Shown: piece by piece, positions 14,368-60,830 of the stretch
Position numbering within the stretch: the first letter of the stretch is position 1
Layout of the letters: each line of letters starts with the position of its first letter
Assembly (NCBI GenBank): GCA_015066385.1
Contig: SVOJ01000007.1
Coordinates: 17,448-81,447 of the forward strand
Direction of reading: 5' to 3'
Source of the DNA: Oscillospiraceae bacterium
GTDB lineage: Bacteria > Bacillota > Clostridia > Oscillospirales > Acutalibacteraceae
DNA: 64,000 bases
Translations under genes and position numbers: made by a program
Notes under the pieces: model-generated
Database searches by the model: none
Told to the model about the DNA's origin: nothing
What the model saw: the letters and a program-made list of their open reading frames with translations, nothing else

Positions 14368-14396
14368 TTGACATTCTGCGATATTCGTTATATAAT
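14368..14396 (+). promoter_or_regulatory. Sigma-A-type promoter
   Basis: TTGACA (14368-14373), a 17-nt spacer, then TATAAT (14391-14396). Confidence 0.55.
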
Positions 14397-46351: not shown

Positions 46352-48424
46352 ATGGACAAGCAGGAATTGAAGTATTTGCAGAATGTACAATCGTTTATTG
46401 ATGCACAGATGCAGTATCTGTCGCAACTGAAAACGGAACAACTTGCAGAAGCCCGTGCCGAGGGAGCCCAATTTTCGTTGGACAATCCTTACGGTGCGGT
46501 ATACGGTCATGCGTTCGACCTGCAGGAATCCATCGGCAAAAAAATGGACACTGTCAACCAGTGCATCTCCACCCGTTATATTCTTGAAAAAATGCGGTCT
46601 GCACCCTATTTCGGCAGGGTCGATTTTCAGGAGGACGGCTACGAAACGGAAGAAATCTATGTCGGTCTTCGTACGTTGATGGACTCCGATACGCTGTTTG
46701 TGCATGTTTATGACTGGCGTACCCCTGTCTGCTCGTTGTTTTACACGGGTGAAACGGGTCGGGCTTCTTATACCGCCCCGATGGGGCTTATTGAAGGCGA
46801 AATTCAGAAAATCCGTCAGTATCAGTTCAAGGACGGCGAACTTGCCGCTTGCTGGGATGCGGATCTTCGCATTGATGACACGGTGCTTCGCAATGTGCTT
46901 TCGGGGGCATCGAGCGACCGTCTGAAAGTCATTGTCTGTTCCATTCAGCGTGAGCAGAACCGCTGTATCCGTTTTGATACCAAAAAGAGCCTTGCCGTGT
47001 TCGGTCCCGCGGGGTGCGGAAAAACCTCCATCGGCATGCACCGCCTTGCATGGCTGTTGTATGAACTGCGGACAAGCCTGATTTCCAAAGATATTCTTCT
47101 GTTTACGAATAATGTGGCATTTCTGCACTATGTTTCGGGCGTGCTTCCCGACCTCGGCGAAGAAGAAGTGCGCTCTTGCCTGTTCTCGTCTTTGCTCGAA
47201 CAATATCTGCCCGAATACACCGTGACAGATTATTATGAATTGGCAGAAGCGGTGCTTGAAGGGAATGAATACCGAACAAAAACGGTCAATGCCGTTTATG
47301 ACCCCGATTTTCTTTCCTATGTGGATCGCTGTCTGGATCTGATGCACTGCCGCTTTTTTGATATCCGCGTGTTCGGCGAAGTTGCACTGTCTGCCGAAAC
47401 CATGAAAAAGAAATACGAGGCGTTTTCCGTCAATTTGTCCGTGCATGCAAGATTGCAACTGCTGCTGGAATGGGCAAGGGATGAAATTGATGATTATTTT
47501 CTTATCAATCGTCTTGACCTGACGAGCAAACTGCTTGAAAAGCACGAAAGCCATGAGCCTTTGCAGAAACTCATGGAAAATTTAAAAAACAGTGTGCTCG
47601 GCAACCTCGAAATGATGATCAACAGTGCCGTGGCACAGGATACCGTACCGCTTTACTACCGCTTTTTCCGTGCATGGTGCAAGGACAAAAAACTTGCGGA
47701 TGATCTTGCACACCGCATGGGCAACCGCCTTCTGAATTTTGAAGATGCCGTTATGGCATTGTATATTGCCGCGAAACTGGGTAACTGTGAACAGGAGGAT
47801 CCCCCTGCACACATTCTGCTTGATGAAGCACAGGATTATTCTGTTTTGCAGCACAAAATTCTGCGTTTGCTGTATCCCAAAGCCGTGTTCACTTTGCTTG
47901 CCGACACCAATCAGGCACTTGTGCCGCAACTCAACACCACAAGCGAAGCACAGCTTTGTGAAATTTACGGTGCATCTGTGATGAAACTCGGCAAAAGCTA
48001 CCGTGCCACCAAACAACTCAGTGAATTTTCAAAACAATTCCTGGACGGTGCGGATTATGATGTCTTTGACCGCGAAGGACAAGCACCTTTCGTGTATCAC
48101 ACCGACAATCTTGCCGGAACTGCCGCCGAAATTGCAAAAAATGTTCCCGCAGACTACAATTCCGTCTGCATTCTGACCGATACCGCGGCAACAGCGGCAA
48201 GATTCTATAAAGAAATAAAAAAATATCTGCCCGATTGCGAGCTGGTCAACACCGCTTATGCTCGCATGAGCAGTAAAGTCATTATTATGCCCGTCACATT
48301 GAGTAAAGGGCTTGAATTCGATGCAGTTATTATCCCGCATGCCGAAGATCTTGAGAAAAACAGACGTGTGGCTTATATGATGACCACCCGTGCGTTGCAC
48401 GAACTGCATCTGCTTTACGAATAA
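46352..48424 (+). CDS. helD: HelD-type UvrD-like helicase (RNA polymerase recycling factor)
   Basis: 690 aa. The N-terminal coiled region and PYFGRVDF ... YVGLRTL segment are typical of HelD. Walker A is GPAGCGKT, and the C-terminus is UvrD-like (KGLEFDAVII). Confidence 0.8.
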   Translation: MDKQELKYLQNVQSFIDAQMQYLSQLKTEQLAEARAEGAQFSLDNPYGAVYGHAFDLQESIGKKMDTVNQCISTRYILEKMRSAPYFGRVDFQEDGYETEEIYVGLRTLMDSDTLFVHVYDWRTPVCSLFYTGETGRASYTAPMGLIEGEIQKIRQYQFKDGELAACWDADLRIDDTVLRNVLSGASSDRLKVIVCSIQREQNRCIRFDTKKSLAVFGPAGCGKTSIGMHRLAWLLYELRTSLISKDILLFTNNVAFLHYVSGVLPDLGEEEVRSCLFSSLLEQYLPEYTVTDYYELAEAVLEGNEYRTKTVNAVYDPDFLSYVDRCLDLMHCRFFDIRVFGEVALSAETMKKKYEAFSVNLSVHARLQLLLEWARDEIDDYFLINRLDLTSKLLEKHESHEPLQKLMENLKNSVLGNLEMMINSAVAQDTVPLYYRFFRAWCKDKKLADDLAHRMGNRLLNFEDAVMALYIAAKLGNCEQEDPPAHILLDEAQDYSVLQHKILRLLYPKAVFTLLADTNQALVPQLNTTSEAQLCEIYGASVMKLGKSYRATKQLSEFSKQFLDGADYDVFDREGQAPFVYHTDNLAGTAAEIAKNVPADYNSVCILTDTAATAARFYKEIKKYLPDCELVNTAYARMSSKVIIMPVTLSKGLEFDAVIIPHAEDLEKNRRVAYMMTTRALHELHLLYE

Positions 48425-48486: not shown

Positions 48487-48515
48487 TTGACAAGATTGAA
48501 TTTATATGCTACAAT
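48487..48515 (+). promoter_or_regulatory. Consensus sigma-A promoter of the type III TA locus
   Basis: TTGACA (48487-48492), a 17-nt spacer, then TACAAT (48510-48515). Confidence 0.7.
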
Positions 48516-48518
48516 TCA

Positions 48519-48617
48519 ATTGAAGATCAGGTGCGAGGATAACACCTTTATAAAGAAATTCCGATTCAAGATCAGGTGTGAGGGTAACACCTTCATAAAA
48601 AAATCCCAACGGAAGAT
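48519..48617 (+). ncRNA. Type III antitoxin RNA: 2.2 tandem 45-nt repeats
   Basis: Units 48519-48563 and 48564-48608 are 38/45 identical by my count. Each contains an AGGTG...CACCT hairpin and an A-rich tract. A partial third unit GGAAGAT follows. Confidence 0.75.
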
Positions 48618-48653
48618 AGCCCTTGTACTTCGGTGCAAGGGCTTTATCTTTTT
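48618..48653 (+). terminator. Intra-operon terminator between antitoxin repeats and toxin gene
   Basis: An 11-bp stem, AGCCCTTGTAC / GTGCAAGGGCT, with a TTCG loop and a following U-rich tract. Confidence 0.75.
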
Positions 48654-48665
48654 GTATGAGGTATT

Positions 48666-49133
48666 ATGAAAACAAAAAAGATTTACGAATTACATTATTT
48701 GTCGGCAGAATTTTATAATAAGTACAACACATCAGAATATCCCGAAATTGAACATAAGATACAGCGACCTTATATTGTACTTTTGATTCAGGTAGATAAC
48801 AACACTTTTGCACTGCCTTTAAGAACAAATATCAAGCATGGTAATTGTTATAAATTTCAGTATTCATCAAGACCGACAGATAGTATTACCGGCATTGATT
48901 TTTCAAAAGCGGTCATAGTGAACGAAGCAAGTTATATAGGTGAAGCTGCTGAAATTGATAATAAGGAATATGTGGAGTTGAATGACAGAATTGCTTTTAT
49001 CGTCAGCAAATTCCGCACATATGTAAAAGGTTATTACACCTATGCGGCAGGAAAAGCGAATGAATATCAGGCAAAGAGATATAAATATACAACGCTAAAA
49101 TATTTCCATGAAGAGCTTGGTATATCGGAGTAA
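48666..49133 (+). CDS. Type III TA toxin, ToxN/AbiQ/CptN-like endoribonuclease (putative)
   Basis: 155-aa AT-rich ORF 12 nt after the terminator. The segment RPYIVLLIQVDNNTFALPLRTNIKH parallels the AbiQ/ToxN segment ...IGIVLEI.GHKYLAPLTSPK. The locus architecture is diagnostic. Confidence 0.7.
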   Translation: MKTKKIYELHYLSAEFYNKYNTSEYPEIEHKIQRPYIVLLIQVDNNTFALPLRTNIKHGNCYKFQYSSRPTDSITGIDFSKAVIVNEASYIGEAAEIDNKEYVELNDRIAFIVSKFRTYVKGYYTYAAGKANEYQAKRYKYTTLKYFHEELGISE

Positions 49134-49241
49134 ATCCGTGAGTACAAAAATTTTCGGCAATCAAATTATATCACAAAAAATCGTAAAAATTTAAATTATA
49201 ATCACAATTATTATAATAACGATAAAACAAGAGAAAACACA

Positions 49242-50141
49242 ATGATTAACTGTACACTTTGCCCCCGCAATTGCAAAATTGACCGCAGTCAGCACAAAGG
49301 ATTTTGCGGTCAGAAAGAAGCCCTTGTGCTTGCAAGGGCGGCTTTGCATTTTTGGGAAGAACCGTGTATCAGCGGTTCGGGAGGCAGCGGAACGGTCTTT
49401 TTCAGCGGTTGCAATCTGCGGTGTGTGTTCTGTCAGAACCGCAGGATCAGTGCCGATGGCTTCGGTGAAGCCGTCACCGTGAAGCGGCTTCGTGAAATTT
49501 TTGAAGAACTCGTATGGCAGGGTGCGGACAACATCAACCTTGTCACGCCGACCCATTTTGCCGCACCGATCGCCGAAGCACTCGACGGTTTTTCGCACAA
49601 TGTGCCCGTCATCTGGAATTCGGGCGGGTATGACAGTGTACAGACCCTGAAAATGCTCGAAGGAAAAATTGATATTTATATGCCCGACTTTAAATACAGT
49701 GCCGTTGCACCCGCCAAAAAATATTCTGCGGCGGCAGATTACCCCTTCCGTGTGCGTGCGGCACTCAAAGAAATGTACCGTCAGGTCGGTGATGTGCAGT
49801 TCGATGATTTCGGTATGTTGCAAAAAGGACTTCTTGTTCGGCATCTTGTTCTGCCGGGTGAACTTGAAAACACATACGGTGTTATTGATACTTTTGCATC
49901 CCTGTTTCCAGACGGGCAGGCTTTGTTCAGCCTGATGGGGCAATACACCCCGCCCGCCGAACCGCTTGCATTTGAAAATTTAAACCGTAAACTCACCGAA
50001 GAAGAATACGAAAAGGCGGAGGATTATCTGTATTTGTGCGGCATTGAAGACGGATTTGTGCAGGAACTGACCAGTGCCGAAGCACAATTCACCCCGCCGT
50101 TTGACCTGACGGGCGTACAAGAAGCGGATTTGCAGGACTGA
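49242..50141 (+). CDS. Radical SAM protein (PflX-like activase family)
   Basis: CPRNCKIDR ... FFSGCNLRCVFCQN, which contains a CxxxCxxC motif. Confidence 0.8.
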   Translation: MINCTLCPRNCKIDRSQHKGFCGQKEALVLARAALHFWEEPCISGSGGSGTVFFSGCNLRCVFCQNRRISADGFGEAVTVKRLREIFEELVWQGADNINLVTPTHFAAPIAEALDGFSHNVPVIWNSGGYDSVQTLKMLEGKIDIYMPDFKYSAVAPAKKYSAAADYPFRVRAALKEMYRQVGDVQFDDFGMLQKGLLVRHLVLPGELENTYGVIDTFASLFPDGQALFSLMGQYTPPAEPLAFENLNRKLTEEEYEKAEDYLYLCGIEDGFVQELTSAEAQFTPPFDLTGVQEADLQD

Positions 50142-50158
50142 ATAAATTGTAATTTTTA

Positions 50159-50187
50159 TTGCAATTTATGTCGGATTGTGCTATAAT
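50159..50187 (+). promoter_or_regulatory. Promoter of the small-peptide gene
   Basis: TTGCAA (50159-50164), a 17-nt spacer, then TATAAT (50182-50187) with a TGn extension. Confidence 0.6.
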
Positions 50188-50278
50188 TTTTTCGGGCAAG
50201 GCCGACCTTAAACGGTAGGCGGTTACCTTCCGATTACGAAGGGTGTCTTTTTTCCCTCCGGGAAGGAGGGAGGTGCAC

Positions 50279-50386
50279 ATGGTATCACTTGGAGATCTTA
50301 TTGGAATATTAAGTCTTCTTGTTGCAACTGTTGCAGTTGTTATTAGCATGGTGAACCTCATCATCAACATAACAAAAAAGAAATAA
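50279..50386 (+). CDS. 35-aa hydrophobic peptide, candidate type I toxin (holin-like toxin type)
   Basis: MVSLGDLIGILSLLVATVAVVISMVNLIINITKKK. The SD GGAGGG (50265-50270) is 8 nt upstream and can pair with CCCTCC (50254-50259). The ORF is shorter than the ORF-track cutoff. Confidence 0.6.
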   Translation: MVSLGDLIGILSLLVATVAVVISMVNLIINITKKK

Positions 50387-50463
50387 CCGCCCATCCAGCT
50401 TCCAACTGAGGCGGTTATTTCTGCTTTAACGGAAGACAAACCGTCTATCGGTTTGCCTTGTTC
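50375..50463 (-). ncRNA. Candidate antisense antitoxin sRNA (~90 nt)
   Basis: Predicted from the minus-strand consensus promoter and the shared hairpin, which on the minus strand is followed by T6. It is complementary to the 3' end of the peptide mRNA. The ends are inferred. Confidence 0.5.
50381..50420. terminator. Bidirectional terminator shared by peptide mRNA and antisense RNA
   Basis: AAATAACCGCC (50381-50391) pairs with GGCGGTTATTT (50410-50420). Both sides are T-rich. Confidence 0.7.
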
Positions 50464-50469
50464 ATTTAC

Positions 50470-50498
50470 ATTATATCAATCTTTTTTCATTCTGTCAA
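50470..50498 (-). promoter_or_regulatory. Consensus sigma-A promoter on the minus strand
   Basis: The reverse complement reads TTGACA (50498-50493), a 17-nt spacer, then TATAAT (50475-50470). Confidence 0.65.
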
Positions 50499-50522
50499 CA
50501 CCTGTTTTTCAGGTGTTTTTTC
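50497..50522 (+). terminator. Second plus-strand terminator
   Basis: AACACCT (50497-50503) pairs with AGGTGTT (50511-50517) and is followed by a T run. Confidence 0.6.
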
Positions 50523-50747
50523 AAATGATTTCTCACAACAAACTTTCCCCCGCATATAGTGTCTTTGGGGACACAATCCGCGGGGGTGCACGGCGGTACG
50601 GTTTGTTTCCGTCCCCGATTGACCGCTGTCATACGGCCGCCGCTGAAAACACTCTGTCGGACAAAATGCCCTCCCGACAGGGTGCAGACCCGTTGCCGGG
50701 TGCAAAAATTTTTTACAATCATTCATTAAATGCAAGGAAGTGAACGC

Positions 50748-52016
50748 ATGGCTCAGCCGCTTGCCGAACGAATCCGACCGCAATCCATTGATGAGGTTGT
50801 GGGACAAAAACACCTGATCGCAGAGAATGCACCGCTGTGTAATATTATCCGATCGGGTCATTTGCCCAATATGATTTTCTACGGTCCTTCGGGGACAGGG
50901 AAAACCACGGTTGCCCGTATTCTTGCGGCGGCAACCAAGCGAAAACTGCACATTCTCAACGGCACCAATGCATCCATTTCGGATGTGCGTGCCGTCATCG
51001 GTGAGGTCAACACCCTCGCCGCCCCCAACGGTGTGCTTTTGTATCTCGACGAAATTCAGTATTTCAACAAAAAACAACAGCAATCCCTGCTCGAATACAT
51101 CGAAAACGGAACCGTTACCCTCATTGCCGCCACCACCGAAAATCCGTATTTTTATATCTATCCCGCTATTCTCAGCCGCAGCACCGTGTTTGAGTTCAAG
51201 TTCGTCACGCCTGAAGACATTCTGCCCGCGCTGGAACGTGCCTTTGCCGTGATGGCAGAAGATTTCAAAGAGGAATTTGAAATTGAAGACGGGGTGCTCA
51301 TGCACATTGCCCGCGGTTGCGGCGGGGACGTGCGCAAGGGGGTTAATTCGGTTGAATTGTGTGTGCTGTCGAGCAATATTCCCGATGTCGGACAGAAGCG
51401 AAAAATTCTGCTTGAAACCGCAAAAGCCGTCACCCAGAAAACCGCCCTTCGCTATGACCGCGAGGGGGACGAGCATTACGATCTTTTGTCTGCTTTTCAG
51501 AAATCCATGCGCGGCTCTGATCCGAATGCAACGCTTCACTACCTTGCCCGCATTTTAGAAGCGGGGGATATGCCTTCGGCTTGCAGAAGACTCATGGTCT
51601 GTGCGGCGGAGGACGTCGGACTTGCCTATCCGATGATCATTCCCATTGTCAAAGCCGCTGTGGACATGGCTTTTCAGGTCGGCATGCCCGAGGCTCGCAT
51701 TCCGCTTGCCGATGCCGCCGTGCTGGTGGCAACAAGCCCGAAATCGAATTCCGCGTATCTCGGCTACGATGCAGCACTGTCCGATTTGCAGGCAGGAAAA
51801 GCAGGTCCCGTGCCGCGCACCTTGCAGAACAAGCATTTTGACGGCGAAGATGCGGCCGTGAAAGGGCAGTTTTACAATTATCCGCATGCCTACCCGAATC
51901 ATTGGTGCAAGCAACAATACCTGCCCGATAACCTCAAAAATATCACCTATTATCAGTTCGGCGAAAACCGCACCGAGCAAGCGGCAAAAGAGTATTGGGA
52001 TAAAATTAAAAAATAA
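50748..52016 (+). CDS. rarA: Replication-associated recombination protein A (AAA+ ATPase)
   Basis: I chose the start at MAQPLAERIRPQSIDEVVGQKHL, after AAGGAAG. Walker A is GPSGTGKTT, and a MgsA C-terminal domain is present. Confidence 0.9.
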   Translation: MAQPLAERIRPQSIDEVVGQKHLIAENAPLCNIIRSGHLPNMIFYGPSGTGKTTVARILAAATKRKLHILNGTNASISDVRAVIGEVNTLAAPNGVLLYLDEIQYFNKKQQQSLLEYIENGTVTLIAATTENPYFYIYPAILSRSTVFEFKFVTPEDILPALERAFAVMAEDFKEEFEIEDGVLMHIARGCGGDVRKGVNSVELCVLSSNIPDVGQKRKILLETAKAVTQKTALRYDREGDEHYDLLSAFQKSMRGSDPNATLHYLARILEAGDMPSACRRLMVCAAEDVGLAYPMIIPIVKAAVDMAFQVGMPEARIPLADAAVLVATSPKSNSAYLGYDAALSDLQAGKAGPVPRTLQNKHFDGEDAAVKGQFYNYPHAYPNHWCKQQYLPDNLKNITYYQFGENRTEQAAKEYWDKIKK

Positions 52017-59989: not shown

Positions 59990-60018
59990 TTGACAAAAGC
60001 AGATTTTTCGTTTATAAT
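59990..60018 (+). promoter_or_regulatory. Consensus sigma-A promoter
   Basis: TTGACA (59990-59995), a 17-nt spacer, then TATAAT (60013-60018). Confidence 0.65.
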
Positions 60019-60052
60019 GAAAACGAACATACTATGAAAGGAGCCTAAAACC

Positions 60053-60208
60053 ATGTATAACGAAATAATGAACACAATCCCCGATTTTGTCCATGTTATT
60101 CTTTCTTGGTTGGAAGTAATTTTCGCAACTTTGCTTGAAGGTCTCGGAATTATTAAAGTTCCTTCCCACGAAGGCACAGATGTCGGCGGCGAAGAAGCAG
60201 CTGAATAA
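60053..60208 (+). CDS. 51-aa small protein (one hydrophobic helix, acidic tail), hypothetical
   Basis: MYNEIMNTIPDFVHVILSWLEVIFATLLEGLGIIKVPSHEGTDVGGEEAAE. An AAAGGAG SD lies upstream, and the gene has its own promoter and terminator. It is below the ORF-track cutoff. Confidence 0.5.
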   Translation: MYNEIMNTIPDFVHVILSWLEVIFATLLEGLGIIKVPSHEGTDVGGEEAAE

Positions 60209-60227
60209 TCAAAAATAATCGATAAAA

Positions 60228-60258
60228 ACAGCACGGCTTGTCCGTGTTGTTTTTTTTC
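60228..60258 (+). terminator. Rho-independent terminator
   Basis: ACAGCACGG pairs with CCGTGTTGT (one G-U pair) and is followed by T8. Confidence 0.7.
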
Positions 60259-60293
60259 TTGACAAAAATGAATATGTACGTTATAATGTACAT
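60259..60293 (+). promoter_or_regulatory. yefM-yoeB promoter with palindromic operator
   Basis: TTGACA (60259-60264), a 17-nt spacer, then TATAAT (60282-60287). The inverted repeat ATGTAC (60274-60279) / GTACAT (60288-60293) brackets the -10 element. Confidence 0.65.
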
Positions 60294-60315: not shown

Positions 60316-60564
60316 ATGACAACTACAACAATAACAAATTTCAGACAAAATCTGTTTGAATATATAAAATCTGCCATTGAGTATAACGATATTATTGATG
60401 TAACAACCAAAGACGGAAATGCTGTTGTTATGAGCAAGGATGAATATAACGGCTTAATGGAGACGTTATATCTGCTTTCGCATCCGAAAACTGCTGAAGA
60501 AATTCTTTCATCAAAAAACGATCCTGCTGAAGAATTTACTTCTTTGGAGGATGTTGAGTGGTAA
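60316..60564 (+). CDS. yefM: Type II antitoxin, Phd/YefM family
   Basis: TNFRQNLFEYIKSAIEYNDIIDVTTKDGNAVVMSKDEYNGLMETLYLL is a typical YefM sequence. Confidence 0.9.
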   Translation: MTTTTITNFRQNLFEYIKSAIEYNDIIDVTTKDGNAVVMSKDEYNGLMETLYLLSHPKTAEEILSSKNDPAEEFTSLEDVEW

Positions 60565-60830
60565 TGTATAATGTAGTTTTATCAAAAGCGGCAGTCAAGC
60601 ATACCAAACTTTTGTCGGGTGCAAAACTGGCGGAAAAAGCAAAATCATTGCTTGCGGTATTAAAGAACGACCCTTTTCAGAACCCGCCGCCTTACGAACA
60701 ATTGGTTGGTGAGTTCAAAGGCTTGTATTCAAGGCGCATAAACTATCAGCACAGATTGGTATACAGTGTTGATAAAGAAACAAATACAGTGTATGTCATG
60801 AGTATGTGGACACACTACGAAACGATATAA
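60564..60830 (+). CDS. yoeB: Type II toxin, Txe/YoeB family mRNA interferase
   Basis: LYSRRINYQHRLVYSV ... MWTHYE matches YoeB. The ATG overlaps the yefM stop (TAATG); an alternative GTG start is at 60558. Confidence 0.9.
   Translation: MYNVVLSKAAVKHTKLLSGAKLAEKAKSLLAVLKNDPFQNPPPYEQLVGEFKGLYSRRINYQHRLVYSVDKETNTVYVMSMWTHYETI

Follow-up and report, generated by a model that had tools for sequence, protein, structure and literature searches.

Organization of the Locus

The DNA analyzed here is a stretch of 64,000 nucleotides (nt) from the Oscillospiraceae bacterium assembly GCA_015066385.1 (contig SVOJ01000007.1, positions 17,448 to 81,447), hereafter the window. At positions 50159-50522 of the window lies a module of ~365 bp. 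Its plus strand carries a promoter, a leader in which the Shine-Dalgarno (SD) sequence is paired, an open reading frame (ORF) for a small hydrophobic peptide, and two hairpins, SL3 at the stop codon and SL4 at the end of the module. Its minus strand carries a second promoter, pointing toward the ORF, from which an antisense RNA is predicted to be transcribed. The locus is probably a compact chromosomal type I toxin-antitoxin (TA) cassette of the TxpA/BsrG kind, the family called Hol_Tox in Pfam. In silico support for this reading comes from the elements themselves, their conservation, the coding signature of the ORF, the covariation of SL3 and of a long-range helix (P1), and the homology to Hol_Tox through intermediate sequences.

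All the elements listed in the original prediction, which was made without database searches, are present in this region (Table 1). They include the two promoters, the ORF, the pairing of the SD GGAGGG (50265-50270) with CCCTCC (50254-50259), the small hairpin at 50437-50455, the minus-strand terminator hairpin followed by U6, and a second plus-strand terminator with a U-rich sequence behind its hairpin. The terminator hairpin proposed directly after the ORF exists as well, but its stem of 13 bp is slightly longer than predicted. The in silico evidence named beforehand for a type I TA system was all found, which supports that reading.

Table 1. Features of the module, in window coordinates.
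Feature	Position	Strand	Remarks
Toxin promoter TTGCAA-17-TATAAT with TGn extension	50159-50187	+	10/12 consensus matches
Predicted toxin start site	G50194	+
Predicted full-length toxin mRNA, ~329 nt	50194-50522	+	Minimum free energy (MFE) -115.6 kcal/mol, z = -7.85
P1, 5' strand: GGGCAAGGC / GACC / GGUAGGCGGUU	50194-50224	+	Resembles the antisense 5' end; pairs via wobbles and a bulge
Leader hairpin CCUUC/GAAGG	50226-50242	+	3' arm is GGAGGG in most relatives, identical to the SD
Anti-SD/SD hairpin UCCCUCC-GGGAA-GGAGGGA, 7 bp (50253-50259/50265-50271)	50253-50271	+	-12.9 kcal/mol
35-codon ORF encoding MVSLGDLIGILSLLVATVAVVISMVNLIINITKKK	50279-50386	+	Coding signature in relatives
SL3, 13-bp hairpin AGAAAUAACCGCC/GGCGGUUAUUUCU (50379-50391/50410-50422)	50379-50422	Both	Starts within the last codons and the stop codon
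P1, 3' strand: AACCGUCUAUC / GGUU / GCCUUGUUC	50436-50463	+	Holds a local 7-bp hairpin (50437-50455)
SL4, intrinsic toxin mRNA terminator AACACCUG-UUUUU-CAGGUGUU (50497-50517), then U-run	50497-50522	+	Overlaps the antisense -35
Antitoxin promoter TTGACA-17-TATAAT with TGn	50470-50498	-	12/12 consensus matches
Predicted antisense start site	G at 50463	-	Complement of the last P1 nucleotide
Predicted antisense antitoxin RNA, ~92 nt	50372-50463	-	5' hairpin, terminator hairpin, U6; MFE -39.9 kcal/mol, z -6.3

The Peptide Gene

Both the -35 and the -10 of the plus-strand promoter are kept in all family members, the -35 being TTGCAA, TTGAAA, or TTGACA. No shuffle of the predicted full-length mRNA is as stable as its fold. 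A shorter mRNA that ends at SL3 and lacks the 3' strand of P1 is also possible, because SL3 has a weak U-rich tail on its plus-strand side.

Direct reading of the 35-amino-acid (aa) peptide reveals an uncharged stretch at residues 7-32 and a KKK tail. The SD is located 8 nt upstream of the ATG. The nine distinct alleles of the ORF share their start and stop and are all 35 codons long, and neither frameshifts nor internal stops are seen. Synonymous and nonsynonymous changes between close pairs of alleles are 5:1, 4:2, 6:2, and 2:0. The more distant locus L053 shows an in-frame deletion of seven codons, and in L049 the peptide at this position is a different one of the same type, 29 aa long. Few gene callers report the ORF, and 35-aa homologues are annotated by gene callers in other genomes. 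The preserved frame and length, the synonymous bias, and the spacing of the SD indicate that the ORF is very likely a genuine coding sequence.

A longer version of the ORF, starting from GTG at 50243 and encoding 47 aa, was rejected; in relatives, a 1-nt indel of the leader breaks the longer frame, and the SD is placed for the ATG.

The very strong predicted structure of the mRNA and the high DNA conservation would also fit a purely non-coding structured RNA with a fortuitous ORF. The likelihood of this is close to negligible, considering the synonymous bias, the nine alleles with the same frame and length, the in-frame length change in L053, the position of the SD, and the homology of the peptide to Hol_Tox.

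The Predicted Antisense Gene

The perfect promoter sequence TTGACA-17-TATAAT occurs four times in the window, against an expectation of 0.02 from shuffles. Both the ORF and the antisense promoter are conserved in relatives, a check that the original prediction had called for. The -35 is invariant in all 12 distinct sequences, and the -10 is TATAAT in 10 of them, the others being TACAAT in L049 and GATAAT in L057. The spacer is fixed at 16-17 nt in length, while its sequence has diverged. Hexamers kept around a diverged spacer appear to be the signature of a working promoter, one that P1 would not explain.

Inside the toxin transcription unit, the antisense promoter is found between P1 and SL4. 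The predicted antisense RNA spans the complement of the last five codons, of SL3, and of the P1 3' strand in full, and none of its shuffles folds equally stably. On the minus strand, SL3 corresponds to the antisense terminator, the U-tract of which is supplied by the KKK codons. A simple terminator scanner flagged neither the minus-strand SL3 nor SL4, but RNAfold supports both; the probable causes are the 18-nt loop of SL3 and the absorption of part of the T-run into the stem of SL4. Judging from these elements, the minus strand seems to contain a cis-encoded antisense gene that has its own promoter and terminator and overlaps the toxin mRNA.

P1 alone would account for the conservation of 50436-50463. 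One could imagine that no functional antisense RNA is produced, that the 3' untranslated region (UTR) represents the 3' strand of P1 plus mRNA stability elements, and that the minus-strand promoter is incidental or inactive. The conserved -35 and -10 with their fixed spacing and diverged spacer, however, are at 50464-50498, outside P1. The perfect promoter match against so low an expectation, the hairpin and U6 exactly at the expected end of a ~90-nt transcript, and the presence of SR4 at the homologous position of bsrG likewise make this alternative very unlikely.

Predicted Structure of the Toxin mRNA

In the MFE fold of the window mRNA, P1 is composed of the pairs 50194-50202/50455-50463, 50204-50207/50450-50453, and 50214-50224/50439-50449. 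P1 is present in the independent MFE folds of all 12 distinct family sequences. Its duplex energy ranges from -35 to -46 kcal/mol (z -5 to -8.5), and none of 500 shuffles is as good. The region of the 3' strand is at the same time the template of the antisense 5' hairpin, and CCGTCTATCGG..TGCCTTG in this region is kept even in the distant relative L049.

The RNAalifold consensus recovers P1, the SD hairpin, and SL3. Its structure has 95% of cells paired, versus 39-57% when the partners are slid. Pairs changed on both sides number seven, versus one to three in the slid controls, and 0 of 500 shuffles reach seven; no more than 10-12 related sequences underlie these counts, and since the structure under test was built from them, it is favored. 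MAFFT shifts L053 by one column in P1, and its compensatory changes are therefore counted as "broken" cells in the tally. Because of this misalignment, the compensatory changes of L053 were read by hand and with duplexfold: AGAGGCUACC is paired with GGUAGCCUCU, the corresponding sequences in most relatives being CAAGGCAGACC and GGUCUGCCUUG. A single position of P1 varies among G-C, G.U, and A-U in the relatives. In SL3, AACCGCC/GGCGGUU is changed to AAUCGCC/GGCGAUU in L049. These compensatory changes support P1 and the stop-codon hairpin as modeled.

Two of the P1 pairs are G.U in every one of the 10 aligned sequences, and some lineages have more wobbles and a bulge. Based on the two invariant pairs, the leader can be considered an imperfect copy of the antisense 5' end. 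The antisense RNA, being fully complementary, should beat the leader for the site in the 3' UTR.

The smaller hairpins are also maintained. The leader hairpin covaries (CCUUC/GAAGG versus CCCUC/GAGGG). The anti-SD/SD hairpin is kept in 12 of the 12 sequences, and its pairing probability in the window is ~1.0 with or without the antisense RNA. The stem of SL4 varies among CACCTG/CAGGTG, CACCC/GGGTG, and CACCCG/CGGGTG, and SL4 is absent in L011, L049, and L053. The leader contains a series of related repeats, CCUUCC, G[AG]AGGG, CCCUCC, and GGAGGG, and a further copy, GGAAG, is found in the 3' UTR. RNAalifold prefers a long-range partner for the CCUUCC of the leader, with two covarying pairs.

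Genomic Contexts and Copies of the Module

Comparison of the DNA around the relatives of the peptide revealed the module in at least seven unrelated genomic contexts. In the window, the upstream neighbor is a radical SAM enzyme and the downstream neighbor is a RarA (MgsA-type) ATPase; L010 and L058-L060 have the same context. The other contexts are a melibiase or nucleotidyltransferase on one side and a 197-aa protein and MutS2 on the other (L001-L008 and L057), TraX and an 806-aa protein (L009), Met gamma-lyase and a 131-aa protein (L051, L052, and L056), an upstream DUF5696 protein (L053), a second contig of the metagenome-assembled genome (MAG) containing L010 (L011), and human-gut contigs (L049 and L040). 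In the copies aligned first, conservation extends from the toxin -35 to the U-run behind SL4. The flanks of the aligned copies, including the DNA upstream of the toxin promoter, are unrelated.

L010 and L011 are two copies of the module on different contigs of one Acutalibacteraceae MAG (class Clostridia), and the window locus is syntenic with one of the two, which makes an origin of the window in this family probable. No second copy of the module or of the peptide was found in the 64-kb window.

The syntenic allele of L058 and L010 is a mosaic. Its promoter, SL3, 3' UTR, and SL4 match the window at 99-100% identity. For its leader and ORF codons 1-27, the identity is 85-99% with L011 but drops to 64-85% with the window. 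Compared with window positions 50194-50359 and with L011, this pattern points to a gene-conversion tract of ~170 bp. Such a conversion would have swapped the leader and the toxin N-terminus together, from MVSLGD to MVTYEA.

The Pfam family is named "holin-like", and bsrG and txpA are found on prophage elements (PMC6562991), which might suggest that the peptide is a holin of phage origin or the remnant of a prophage. This origin is extremely unlikely. The neighbors are non-phage cellular genes in the window and elsewhere (melibiase, MutS2, and Met gamma-lyase), BLASTN of the locus against phage and plasmid collections gave no match, and two DNA-pattern scans of the IMG/VR viral contigs yielded no true copy of the module. 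With a pattern made up of 15 specified bases and one R, 24 IMG/VR matches were obtained, which blastn identified as chance matches.

Relationship of the Peptide to Hol_Tox

The peptide was originally suggested to resemble the holin-like toxin peptides. The resemblance is seen through homologous modules: the peptides of L053 and L049 score 35.3 and 23.2 bits on Pfam PF16935 (Hol_Tox), and others score 15.3 (P0005), 13.9, 12.6, and 11.3 bits. At 12.2 bits (E 0.17), the window peptide itself falls below the gathering cutoff of 23.3. The L053 peptide (P0010), MVTYEAMFLFGSLIVAIIALVINITKKK, from an Acutalibacteraceae MAG, is a full member of the family and is named "putative holin-like toxin" by NCBI. 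BsrG, whose sequence was verified by 100% identity in SPbeta, scores 34.5 bits. TxpA, with its presumed sequence, scores 31.3 bits.

The window peptide has the format of Hol_Tox, that is, a length of 28-60 aa, one hydrophobic transmembrane helix, and a charged, K-rich C-terminus. The syntenic allele of L058 and L010 begins with MVTYEAL, and the paralogue L011 with MVTYETL. Among 5.8 billion sequences of protein databases, eight relatives were found (P0001-P0008). Run with the window peptide over 1.84 billion representative proteins in full, HMMER recovered only the peptide itself and one 71%-identical relative, indicating that the peptide family is small or rarely called. Judging from the intermediates and from the homology of the whole module, rather than from its own score, the window peptide can be placed in a divergent branch of the TxpA/BsrG family. 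According to Fozo 2010, the TxpA family takes in proteins annotated as holin-like toxins, and TxpA-like sequences are observed in Clostridiales (PMC2887945).

Proposed Mechanism and Alternatives

A working scheme can be proposed in which both transcripts, the toxicity of the peptide, the involvement of RNase III, and the order of binding are inferred only. The plus-strand promoter would produce a ~330-nt mRNA for a 35-residue single-helix membrane peptide, and the constitutive 7-bp anti-SD/SD hairpin would keep its translation low. P1 would close the mRNA by pairing the first ~31 nt with the segment of the 3' UTR. The very strong convergent promoter inside the 3' UTR would produce a ~90-nt antisense RNA. 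By analogy with bsrG/SR4 and txpA/RatA, this RNA might first contact the stop-codon hairpin in a loop-to-loop manner. A perfect ~90-bp duplex would then be formed, and the wobble-containing 5' leader would be displaced from P1. The duplex would be a substrate for RNase III, and degradation of the toxin mRNA is proposed on this basis. If the level of the antisense RNA falls, the mRNA would survive and the peptide would be inserted into the membrane.

Constrained partition-function folding of the 12 sequences gave an SD that is ~0.9-1.0 paired in both states, with no consistent shift. Since the SD is ~90-100% paired either way, the modeling favors a RatA/SR5-like mode in which the antitoxin would act by decay only, on top of the constitutive occlusion of the SD. 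The repeat series of the leader is suggestive of a switch.

Several points weigh against a type I TA cassette of the TxpA/BsrG kind. Besides its low Hol_Tox score, the window peptide begins with MVSLGDL, not MVTYEAL, and is without the motif M-x-T-[YF]-E-[AS]-[LIM] of BsrG, TxpA, P0009, and P0010. YhzE-2, a family-like peptide, was not toxic in tests (PMC2887945). The covariation is based on few sequences, which also served to derive the structure. A switch of the SR4 type, in which the antitoxin lengthens the SD helix, was considered and is unsupported by the modeling, as the predicted accessibility of the SD is unchanged. The Rfam model of BsrG (RF01412) has no match in 49000-52000 at E up to 10, although the positive control, the real bsrG locus (L061), scores 185 bits. 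RF01412 also has no match across the whole window at the gathering score; all Rfam models together gave only chance matches or none around the locus at E up to 10 and in the whole window at the gathering score.

The peptide might instead be a small non-toxic membrane protein that has a physiological role and whose level is tuned by the antisense RNA. An antisense RNA is present opposite yhzE-2 despite the lack of toxicity, and Fozo 2010 made the case for other possible roles of chromosomal type I "toxins" (PMC2887945). BsrE is toxic only when overexpressed (PMC6562991), and the constitutively occluded SD would be expected to result in low expression. This explanation is rather unlikely, however, considering the links of the peptide to Hol_Tox, a family matching TxpA and the proven lytic toxin BsrG (PMC6562991). 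In addition, multiple copies, many contexts, and gene conversion are typical of selfish TA cassettes, and the antisense promoter is predicted from its sequence to be far stronger than the toxin promoter. A type I TA cassette is the preferred reading.

It can be speculated that the module represents a distinct clostridial sub-design of the BsrG type, although for the three parts jointly this is a doubtful proposal. First, the entire antitoxin gene may be nested in the toxin 3' UTR. Second, the leader may copy the antitoxin 5' end in a deliberately weakened form, the two competing for one site in the 3' UTR; a relay of repeats (anti-SD, SD mimic, anti-SD, SD, and the third GGAAG in the 3' UTR) could couple this competition to ribosome access. 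Third, gene conversion between paralogues may exchange leader and toxin N-terminus together, as one unit.

Other Loci in the Window

A complete type III TA locus of the TenpIN family is located at 48487-49133. It consists of a promoter (TTGACA-17-TACAAT, 48487-48515), 2.1 copies of a 45-nt tandem repeat (48519-48617), a terminator hairpin near 48615-48652, and a toxin ORF for 155 aa (48666-49133). The toxin scores 144 bits on NCBIfam NF047358 (cutoff 90), and has no sequence match in Pfam, PADLOC, or PDB. Directly upstream is a UvrD-like helicase of 690 aa (46352-48424), with weak GajB-like matches in PADLOC (E ~1e-8). The TenpIN insert is wholly absent from the syntenic contig L058, where the genes for the UvrD-like helicase and the radical SAM enzyme abut. 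The stretch of the helicase and the TenpIN locus may be a small defense or TA island.

A type II TA pair is composed of a Phd/YefM antitoxin (60316-60564) and a YoeB-like toxin (60564-60830). It lies behind a perfect TTGACA-17-TATAAT promoter at 60259-60287, one of the four in the window. Together with the TenpIN locus and the module, this means that type I, II, and III TA loci are found within 12 kb.

Another perfect promoter (59990-60018) drives a 51-aa ORF (60053-60208; MYNEIMNTIPDFVHVILSWLEVIFATLLEGLGIIKVPSHEGTDVGGEEAAE), which has a strong SD, is followed by a terminator (region 59990-60258), and has no Pfam match. The fourth, at 14368-14396, is upstream of a GTG-initiated ORF (~14466) whose N-terminus is signal-peptide-like.

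Comparison with Known Systems

The original prediction compared the locus with TxpA/RatA and BsrG/SR4, and the likeness is closer than was claimed, as it extends to P1, the SD stem, and the stop-codon hairpin complementary to the antitoxin terminator. In the probed bsrG mRNA, nt 1-35 pair with nt 232-262 to form P1, the SD is in a stem, and the stop codon is in the 5' part of SL3 (PMC3834814, Jahn & Brantl 2013). The terminator loop of SR4 first contacts loop 3, and the binding of SR4 frees nt 1-33 (PMC3834814). In B. subtilis systems, the antitoxin pairs at the toxin mRNA's 3' end and promotes its decay, usually via RNase III; SR4 additionally tightens the SD stem (PMC6562991).

The module shares with bsrG/SR4 of the B. 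subtilis prophage SPbeta a short single-helix toxin of the Hol_Tox family that ends with KKK, a helix P1 with ~30 nt per side that closes the mRNA, an SD in a stem, and a stop codon in the 5' part of an SL3 whose complement is the antitoxin terminator. In our reading of the bsrG locus, the KKK codons likewise correspond to the U-tract of the SR4 terminator. In both systems the antitoxin covers the 3' strand of P1, and its binding must therefore free the 5' leader.

The differences are as follows. The antitoxin here is ~90 nt, about half the usual size, and SR4 is 183 nt. The antitoxin promoter is located upstream of the toxin terminator and is fully nested in the toxin transcript, whereas the SR4 promoter is beyond the bsrG terminator, with an overlap of 123 nt. 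The SD hairpin here already has 7 bp, and no extension is predicted upon binding. Over 33 aa, the window peptide shares 27% identity with BsrG. Here, the host is a Clostridia species of the gut, and no prophage surrounds the locus. The window locus thus departs from the bsrG-type format of an antitoxin of 160-220 nt, an overlap of 100-140 bp, an outside promoter, and a prophage location.

RatA overlaps the 3' end of txpA and acts only via RNase III-dependent decay, leaving the SD unchanged (PMC6562991). This decay-only mode is the one predicted for the module, and the toxins of txpA/RatA (B. subtilis skin element; E. faecalis EF3263 locus) belong to the same family. Fozo 2010 detected a ~110-nt antisense RNA over the 3' UTR of EF3263 (PMC2887945). 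TxpA, in contrast, is 59 aa, RatA is 222 nt, and their overlap is 100-140 bp. DNA similarity between the window module and txpA/RatA is not detectable. In hok/sok and in aapA1/IsoA1 of H. pylori, long-distance pairing of the 5' and 3' ends closes the full-length toxin mRNA, as here. In those two systems, the antisense RNAs are directed at the 5' region and the mRNA is activated by 3' processing, whereas the antisense RNA of the module would target the 3' strand of the closing helix. The H. pylori system is the subject of PMC5416894.

The type I TA systems of Clostridioides difficile (CD2517.1/RCd8 and others) are also from the class Clostridia and have convergent overlapping genes, and their toxins have a hydrophobic N-terminal part and a lysine-rich C-terminus (PMC6563280). 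The module, likened to them here by description, is linked to Hol_Tox/BsrG.

A Sporosarcina (Bacillales) locus with a bona fide Hol_Tox peptide (P0009; L054, 1900-2240) shows by eye an SD-sequestering hairpin, a stop-codon hairpin, and 5'/3' complementarity. No convincing antisense promoter was found there by eye, and the Rfam BsrG model has no match.

Standard tools overlook the window locus: its peptide is below the Pfam threshold, Rfam is silent, and few gene callers report the ORF. The locus introduces no new principle and leaves the current understanding of type I TA systems unchanged. According to reviews, txpA/bsrG-like systems occur only in a few species of Bacillus and in a Paenibacillus (PMC6562991), and searches for homologues of known type I toxins found almost none in Clostridia (PMC6563280). 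Here, the BsrG-type design is seen in silico in its complete form in uncultured Acutalibacteraceae of the gut, with the peptide family, P1, the dual-role stop-codon hairpin, and the 3' antisense RNA. As a self-contained cassette, the module could help to annotate similar loci and to investigate the competition of the leader and the antisense RNA for one site, and it extends the design of bsrG/SR4 in a minimal form.

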